Shown here one piece after another: positions 34,212-34,955 of a stretch of DNA of 42,925 nucleotides (position 1 is the first letter of the stretch; every line of letters starts with the position of its first letter). The notes beneath the pieces were generated by a model. That model had not been told where the DNA came from. It was given only the letters and a program-made list of their open reading frames with translations, and ran no database searches. The DNA comes from Escherichia phage DE3. The translations under genes were made by a program, and so were the position numbers. The DNA is taken from the sequence record EU078592. One strand, 5' to 3'.

Positions 34212-34955
34212 ATGACACAGACAGAATCAGCGATTCTGGCGCACGCCCGGCGATGTGCGCCAGCGGAGTCGTGCGGCTTCGTGGTAAGCACGCCGGAGGG
34301 GGAAAGATATTTCCCCTGCGTGAATATCTCCGGTGAGCCGGAGGCGTATTTCCGTATGTCGCCGGAAGACTGGCTGCAGGCAGAAATGCAGGGTGAGATT
34401 GTGGCGCTGGTCCACAGCCACCCCGGTGGTCTGCCCTGGCTGAGTGAGGCCGACCGGCGGCTGCAGGTGCAGAGTGATTTGCCGTGGTGGCTGGTCTGCC
34501 GGGGGACGATTCATAAGTTCCGCTGTGTGCCGCATCTCACCGGGCGGCGCTTTGAGCACGGTGTGACGGACTGTTACACACTGTTCCGGGATGCTTATCA
34601 TCTGGCGGGGATTGAGATGCCGGACTTTCATCGTGAGGATGACTGGTGGCGTAACGGCCAGAATCTCTATCTGGATAATCTGGAGGCGACGGGGCTGTAT
34701 CAGGTGCCGTTGTCAGCGGCACAGCCGGGCGATGTGCTGCTGTGCTGTTTTGGTTCATCAGTGCCGAATCACGCCGCAATTTACTGCGGCGACGGCGAGC
34801 TGCTGCACCATATTCCTGAACAACTGAGCAAACGAGAGAGGTACACCGACAAATGGCAGCGACGCACACACTCCCTCTGGCGTCACCGGGCATGGCGCGC
34901 ATCTGCCTTTACGGGGATTTACAACGATTTGGTCGCCGCATCGACCTTCGTGTGA
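34212..34955 (+). CDS. K: Tail tip assembly protein K with JAB/MPN-like (HSHPGGLPWLSEAD) and NlpC/P60-like (DCYTLF) signatures; drawn from first in-frame ATG 34212 (canonical 199-aa start is ATG 34356)
   Basis: Frame open from 6 bp after L stop; upstream 48 codons contain ...AHARRCAPAESCGFVVS... resembling the conserved Glu-containing N-terminal element of JAB/MPN domains. Confidence 0.8.
   Translation: MTQTESAILAHARRCAPAESCGFVVSTPEGERYFPCVNISGEPEAYFRMSPEDWLQAEMQGEIVALVHSHPGGLPWLSEADRRLQVQSDLPWWLVCRGTIHKFRCVPHLTGRRFEHGVTDCYTLFRDAYHLAGIEMPDFHREDDWWRNGQNLYLDNLEATGLYQVPLSAAQPGDVLLCCFGSSVPNHAAIYCGDGELLHHIPEQLSKRERYTDKWQRRTHSLWRHRAWRASAFTGIYNDLVAASTFV

Follow-up and report, generated by a model that had tools for sequence, protein, structure and literature searches.

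Gene K of phage lambda very probably encodes a 247-residue JAB and NlpC/P60 protein whose upstream start is put out of frame in the 1982 reference by one missing base

Where gene K of phage lambda begins depends on which record is consulted. The canonical start gives a protein of 199 amino acids, while a preliminary description, made from the DNA sequence alone, had proposed that this start was under-called and that K begins 48 codons farther upstream, with the added residues completing a JAB metalloprotease domain fused to an NlpC/P60 peptidase. We addressed the question in the DNA of Escherichia phage DE3 (EU078592); the whole stretch analyzed, 42,925 nucleotides, is referred to as the window. 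Its open reading frames identify the region as the lambda tail-tip block, in the order H-M-L-K-I-J. The frame of K is open from an ATG just past the L stop, with 5 nt between the TAA and the ATG, and runs for 247 codons, giving a protein with a predicted mass of 28.3 kDa. The canonical ATG, at 14276 in J02459, lies 144 nt downstream. The motifs quoted in the description are all present: AHARRCAPAESCGFVVS at residues 10-26, HSHPGGLPWLSEAD at residues 68-81, and DCYTLF at residues 120-125. Features of the locus are collected in Table 1. Taken together, the evidence below makes it very probable that functional K is a two-domain peptidase of 247 residues translated from ATG 34212.

Table 1. Features at the K locus, in positions of the window.
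Feature	Position	Strand	Basis or remark
L	33508..34206	+	232 aa; TAA 34204-34206; named L in J02459 and other records
Full-length K	34212..34955	+	247 codons plus TGA stop; same coordinates in PV340536, PGAP WP_000194780.1
K N-terminal extension	34212..34355	+	48 codons absent from the 199-aa annotation; includes Glu19
JAB/MPN+ (JAMM) metalloprotease domain (predicted)	34218..34523	+	residues 3-104; PF14464, 2KKS, Foldseek
GC-rich hairpin	34327..34344	+	3' arm holds GGAGG 34340-34344; local fold about -10.6 kcal/mol
Extra G	34346	+	absent in J02459/NC_001416 after reference position 14266; base-by-base comparison
Canonical (1982) K start	34356..34358	+	ATG, Met49; start in J02459, NC_001416, OM418625, HK630
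NlpC/P60 (C40) papain-like peptidase domain (predicted)	34542..34883	+	residues 111-224; PF00877, Foldseek
I	34853..35524	+	223 aa; other frame, overlaps the K 3' end by 103 nt

The openness of the 48 upstream codons is in itself weak evidence for coding, the chance of such a run being about 0.1 at 3/64 stops per codon. We nevertheless regard the extension as more than a chance opening because it has profile matches of its own and carries a signature of purifying selection. Searched alone, the 48 residues (which include, for example, the peptide TQTESAILAHAR) match Pfam Prok-JAB with E = 5.8e-5 over profile positions 3-41, and match PHROG families of K-like tail proteins with E = 3e-32 to 4e-22. 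Against ten relatives whose proteins are 74-97% identical, codons 2-48 gave dN/dS values from 0.06 to 0.5 where dS exceeded zero; this is comparable with 0.12-0.38 for codons 49-104, and both are far below 1. By this measure, the extension is under purifying selection. A homologous N-terminal segment headed by ATG was present in all of the relatives of 44-50% identity examined, from Phytobacter, Rahnella, Atlantibacter, Hafnia, Erwinia, Enterobacter, Pseudocitrobacter, Pantoea and Xanthomonas, and Glu19, within an E-x-C-G/A element, was invariant in two 18-sequence alignments. Most of the 120 homologous clusters listed for K have lengths of 242-249 aa and contain both PF14464 and PF00877. We rejected a chance open frame on the JAB and K-family matches of the 48 residues alone and dN/dS below 1. 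A third start, the GTG at codon 37 annotated in KT232076 (211 aa), was also rejected, since it would drop Glu19 and the conserved residues 8-36.

What the extension adds is most visible in the JAB profile. Against PF14464 (profile length 114, cut-off 25 bits), the 247-residue protein scores 52.3 bits over profile positions 3-112, and the 199-residue form scores 23.3 bits, under the cut-off, covering positions 63-112 only. The NCBIfam desampylase model NF041370 behaves similarly, matching residues 3-103 of the long form and leaving the short form unmatched. The predicted active site comprises E19, H68-S-H70, S78 and D81, all invariant in the 18-sequence alignments; the HxHx7Sx2D motif occupies residues 68-81 (34413-34454), downstream of the canonical start, and Glu19 (34266-34268) lies in the extension. 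In the alignment with PDB 2KKS, a JAB/MPN protein, K residues 7-105 are covered, AILAHARRCAPAESCG is paired with EMLAHARQALPNEACG, and Glu19 falls on the Glu of 'NEACG', in agreement with the proposal that the upstream Glu/Cys-Gly element of JAB domains is found in the extension.

An AlphaFold2 model, of moderate overall confidence (mean pLDDT 79, pTM 0.59) and built from a shallow 18-sequence alignment, gives the same picture. Residues 1-40 have pLDDT 86-94, block means over residues 1-100 range from 72 to 94, and the extension is modeled as a helix (3-15) followed by a beta-hairpin (20-27, 30-36). The top JAB matches of the model in a Foldseek search of the PDB were JAMM1 (5LD9, and 5LDA with SAMP2), Rpn11, CSN5 and AMSH, each with a probability of 1.00. 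With the 2KKS alignment, this supplies the JAB fold support for the extension on which the preliminary description had staked its case. Sequence and model thus agree that residues 3-104 are a complete JAB/MPN+ domain, with predicted zinc isopeptidase activity.

The C-terminal half had been described as carrying an NlpC/P60-like Cys, and this holds as well. K matches PF00877 with 49.2 bits (cut-off 23 bits) over the entire profile (positions 1-105 of 105), Cys121 (34572-34574), His187 and His199 are invariant in an 18-sequence alignment, and Cys121 begins a helix (121-131) in the AlphaFold2 model. Foldseek matches for this half of the protein were the NlpC/P60 peptidases MepS and Acd33800. Residues 111-224 are accordingly a predicted NlpC/P60 cysteine peptidase domain, and Cys121, His187 and His199 are the candidate catalytic residues.

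The source of the 199-residue annotation appears to be a single base. Across window positions 33800-35300, the DE3 sequence and J02459 have exactly one difference, a G at 34346 (GGAGGC-G-TATTT) that is missing from the reference 10 nt before the canonical K ATG. The 901 bases around the K start are 100% identical to HK629, HK630, lambda imm21, lambda imm434, LC730321, PV340536 and KT232076, and 99.9% identical to J02459 and NC_001416, where 900 bases align instead of 901. Three-frame translation of J02459 shows the consequence: the frame of ATG 14133 reads MTQTESAILAHARRCAPAESCGFVVSTPEGERYFPCVNISGEPEA and then leaves the K frame. Because the G is missing, the upstream ATG is out of frame in the reference, and the annotators of 1982 therefore took the next in-frame ATG, yielding K of 199 residues. 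The preliminary description was thus right that the start was under-called, and its extension is coding, is conserved and completes the JAB domain; the cause lies in a one-base difference from the 1982 reference more than in a conservative choice of start.

We infer that the missing G is a sequencing error in the 1982 reference. It would sit 2 nt 3' of the end of a hairpin, UCUCCGG-UGAG-CCGGAGG, and gel compression beside this hairpin is a plausible cause. A supplier's notes on its lambda sequence reportedly list a G insertion near 14266. Our searches of the literature found no explicit statement of a G insertion at 14266 or of a 247-residue K, and neither is mentioned in PMC3045373, PMC2966988 or bioRxiv 2025.08.29.673000.

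The opposite possibility is that the reference is right, the G at 34346 being a variant or sequencing artefact of the DE3 record and the true lambda K being frameshifted upstream. Four phage records do lack the G: J02459, NC_001416, OR474059 and OR974322. However, NC_001416 is the RefSeq copy of J02459, OR474059 is an unverified engineered strain, and both OR474059 and OR974322 look reference-derived because they retain the exact coordinates and annotation of the reference, so we rejected these two as independent evidence against the G. Against these four stand at least 17 other phage records that carry the G and match the 901-base query at 100% identity, among them the natural isolates HK629 and HK630, the resequenced lambda genomes LC730321, PV340536 and KT232076, and lambda imm21. 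With a 271-bp query spanning the G, 25 E. coli genomes among the matches listed carry it at 100% identity, and 1972 records match at 99% or more; it is also found in lambda contigs within dozens of unrelated genome assemblies. Moreover, the frame with the G reads a conserved domain, whereas the frame without it reads nonsense. We consider an artefact in DE3 exceedingly improbable. Only slightly less remote is the reading in which the canonical annotation is correct as it stands, only the 199-residue K being made and the upstream frame being an untranslated leader open by chance. Its credentials are its long standing in J02459, NC_001416 and UniProt TIPK_LAMBD and the good Shine-Dalgarno sequence before ATG 34356, with none before ATG 34212. 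It would have to accommodate 48 codons that are under purifying selection, persist at identities as low as about 45%, include a catalytic Glu that does not vary and match JAB profiles alone, next to a short form that falls below the Pfam JAB cut-off and begins at a Met that is not conserved; and the missing reference base already explains the annotation. We regard this reading as highly improbable.

If K begins at ATG 34212, its initiation calls for some comment. No Shine-Dalgarno sequence precedes this ATG (duplex +0.7 kcal/mol), and such sequences are weak or absent at the upstream K start throughout the relatives. Close relatives have 4-11 nt between the L stop and the start of K, and in 10 of 10 enterobacterial relatives of about 50% identity the two overlap as cTGATG; a Xanthomonas relative (L054) has a gap of 63 nt. 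A stop/start overlap such as cTGATG is a classic arrangement for translational coupling. Because ATG 34212 lacks a Shine-Dalgarno sequence, we infer that translation of K would most likely begin there by coupling to L. A search of the literature for mass spectrometry, Edman sequencing or initiation-site ribosome profiling of the gpK N-terminus found none.

The canonical ATG, by comparison, follows a GGAGG (duplex -9.5 kcal/mol; spacing about 10 nt), which some annotations mark as its ribosome-binding site and which presumably accounts for the acceptance of this ATG by gene finders and curators. The same signal invites a third reading, that lambda makes two isoforms: the 247-residue protein from the coupled ATG, and a 199-residue, NlpC/P60-only protein initiated at Met49 through GGAGG, with a role of its own. 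The strong GGAGG at a usable spacing from an internal ATG speaks for it, as does the retention of Met49 and GGAGG together in most near-lambda relatives, and natural NlpC/P60-only versions of K were noted by Iyer et al. (2006; PMC1779556). The combination of Shine-Dalgarno sequence and ATG at codon 49 is, however, confined to near-lambda sequences. Codon 49 is CTG (Leu) in L021, which is 96% identical, and ATC (Ile) in L030, although GGAGG is still there in both; it arises from the Glu-Pro-Glu codons GAG CCG GAG G, and since it is kept where codon 49 is CTG or ATC, we interpret it as a by-product of these codons. Citrobacter relatives show the converse, with Met at codon 49 and no Shine-Dalgarno sequence (+0.4 kcal/mol), and distant relatives have Ile or Leu. 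In addition, GGAGG is held in the 3' arm of the hairpin of -10.6 kcal/mol, and the short form would contain half a JAB domain, which is unlikely to fold. Met49 is therefore probably an internal residue of K, and a pair of functional isoforms is unlikely. A minor product of internal initiation in lambda itself is similarly doubtful, and it is quite unlikely that lambda and its closest relatives also use ATG49 in an isoform ratio set by L-coupled unfolding of the hairpin at 34327-34344. Were ATG49 used too, one gene would supply two peptidase activities at different stoichiometries in tail-tip assembly.

With K taken as the 247-residue protein, its neighborhood suggests what it acts on. K matches phrog_30 with E = 1e-163, and its gene context matches that of 'TAPK', with L upstream, I overlapping and then J; relatives keep both junctions, L-K and K-I. 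Gene I encodes an N-terminal ubiquitin-like domain (PF06805, 100 bits, residues 14-97), followed by a Gly-rich linker (Iyer et al., 2006; PMC1779556). Iyer, Burroughs and Aravind (2006; PMC1779556) predicted 'TAPI' to be the target of 'TAPK', whose JAB domain would free the ubiquitin-like domain of this target. According to a 2025 conference report, a second-hand summary (PMC12908700), the Davidson group finds that gpK cleaves the gpI ubiquitin-like domain, on the evidence of structure prediction, biochemistry and phage mutants, and that cleavage occurs only after gpI engages other tail-tip proteins, thereby enforcing the order of assembly; we did not find a full paper by this group on gpK and gpI in the literature. 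Of gpI, the virion tail tip shows residues 135-223 only (PMC10721106), and neither mass spectrometry nor cryo-EM detected gpK in virions (PMC10721106, PMC12617516); both observations are consistent with K cleaving I. From this work by others, the JAB domain of K would remove the N-terminal ubiquitin-like domain of I during tail-tip assembly, and K itself would not stay in the virion. The suggestion in the preliminary description that I is the second member of a peptidase pair does not survive: I is the reported ubiquitin-like substrate of K (PMC1779556, PMC12908700).

The start of I is itself annotated in two ways, as GTG 34952 (190 aa), which overlaps the K stop and is used in the PGAP annotation of the J53 prophage, in PV340536 and in KT232076, or as ATG 34853 (223 aa). 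In relatives of about 50% identity, I starts 58 nt before the K stop, at a position aligned with Met14 of lambda I, and the relatives keep an overlap of K with I, 58-103 nt long and in different frames. Since PF06805 (Lambda_tail_I) covers I residues 14-97 and the relatives start at Met14, the 190-residue call cuts into the ubiquitin-like domain.

Several known systems are close to K. The closest in architecture is the TAPK family (Iyer et al., 2006; PMC1779556), which shares the JAB and NlpC/P60 combination and the L-K-I-J context of lambda K. The best Foldseek match was archaeal JAMM1 of Pyrococcus furiosus (5LD9, and 5LDA with SAMP2; E = 1.5e-5, TM-score normalized to target 0.65), which, like the K JAB domain, is a minimal MPN+ fold of about 110-130 residues with an E...HxHx7Sx2D site, and whose substrate is a ubiquitin-like beta-grasp protein with a C-terminal Gly. 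The two differ in that K is fused to NlpC/P60 and that identity is 20-24%; the desampylase model NF041370, the best NCBIfam match of K, scores 29.8 bits against a cut-off of 130 bits. Because of this low identity and score, we do not consider K a desampylase equivalog. The bond cleaved also appears to differ, being a linear fusion (gpI) for K and an isopeptide conjugate for JAMM1 and desampylase, going by the conference report (PMC12908700). Rpn11, CSN5 and AMSH share the catalytic fold and metal-binding motif at 14-25% identity but are much larger, carry insertions, belong to multi-subunit complexes and cleave isopeptide bonds. NlpC/P60 proteins of the MepS (Spr) type (8XUP, 7V6S) resemble K in their papain-like C40 fold and Cys-His-His residues; unlike them, K lacks a signal peptide and a cell-wall-binding domain, is cytoplasmic in tail assembly, and is absent from virions.

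The 247-residue K, its JAB and NlpC/P60 architecture and its pairing with I are already known in substance, because the architecture and pairing were published in 2006 (PMC1779556) and the 247-residue protein is in RefSeq. The exact 247-residue sequence occurs on at least 1000 contigs in public databases, under names including 'C40 family peptidase', 'phage tail protein' and 'Predicted metal-dependent protease of the PAD1/JAB1 superfamily'. WP_000194780.1, from an E. coli J53 prophage, is identical to it, and its 744-bp CDS lies in the corresponding place, beginning 6 bp past the L stop; its RefSeq name, 'C40 family peptidase', mentions the C40 domain and omits JAB. PV340536 annotates the 247-residue K in lambda itself. 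Identical DNA has nonetheless been given three K starts, for proteins of 247 aa, of 211 aa (KT232076) and of 199 aa (J02459, NC_001416, OM418625 and HK630), and the short start has been copied onto DNA that contains the G, as in HK630 and lambda imm21.

The outstanding matter is a curation error, which affects J02459, NC_001416 and UniProt TIPK_LAMBD. The last of these (AAA96551.1, NP_040598.1; 199 aa), which we take to be UniProt P03729, is the product of the same gene, and residues 49-247 are identical. It is without the first 48 residues, which supply the JAB domain with its N-terminal helix, two strands and catalytic Glu, and its annotation rests on the sequence without the G at 34346. The most-used lambda references thus give a 199-residue K that lacks half of the catalytic JAB domain, and a 2020 HHpred review of that form reported a peptidase domain at residues 52-182 only (PMC7291167). 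Any gpK cloned, modeled or mutated from the reference would be a truncated, probably inactive enzyme, and reads mapped to NC_001416 will always give a +G variant at this site. Once the base and the start are corrected, K spans 14133..14876 in the corrected numbering, and lambda agrees with its relatives as well as with the reported mechanism in which K cleaves I.

Several further sets of K sequences came to light in the database comparisons. Lambda K at 98-100% identity was found on contigs, many of them short or of low coverage, in unrelated assemblies labeled Neobacillus, Pseudoxanthomonas, Shewanella, Bradyrhizobium, Paenibacillus, Enterococcus, Kitasatospora and others (loci L006-L018, L024, L026, L031, L032, L036, L037, L039, L041-L043, L057 and L059-L061). 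These contigs carry the extra G wherever the site is spanned, and are almost certainly contamination by lambda control or ligation DNA. MW057783.1, 'Campylobacter phage CJLB-4' (48,361 bp, host Campylobacter jejuni), matches lambda at 100% identity over the 901-base query and has a lambda-style annotation of L, K and I; it is probably lambda DNA mislabeled as a Campylobacter phage. Some K copies in E. coli and Shigella prophages have suffered frameshifts or truncation in their first 50-145 codons. In L056, for example, reading from the ATG ends after 35 codons (the open frame has 53), and internal frameshifts interrupt K in L055 and L058; such copies are decaying prophage versions of K rather than alternative gene structures.
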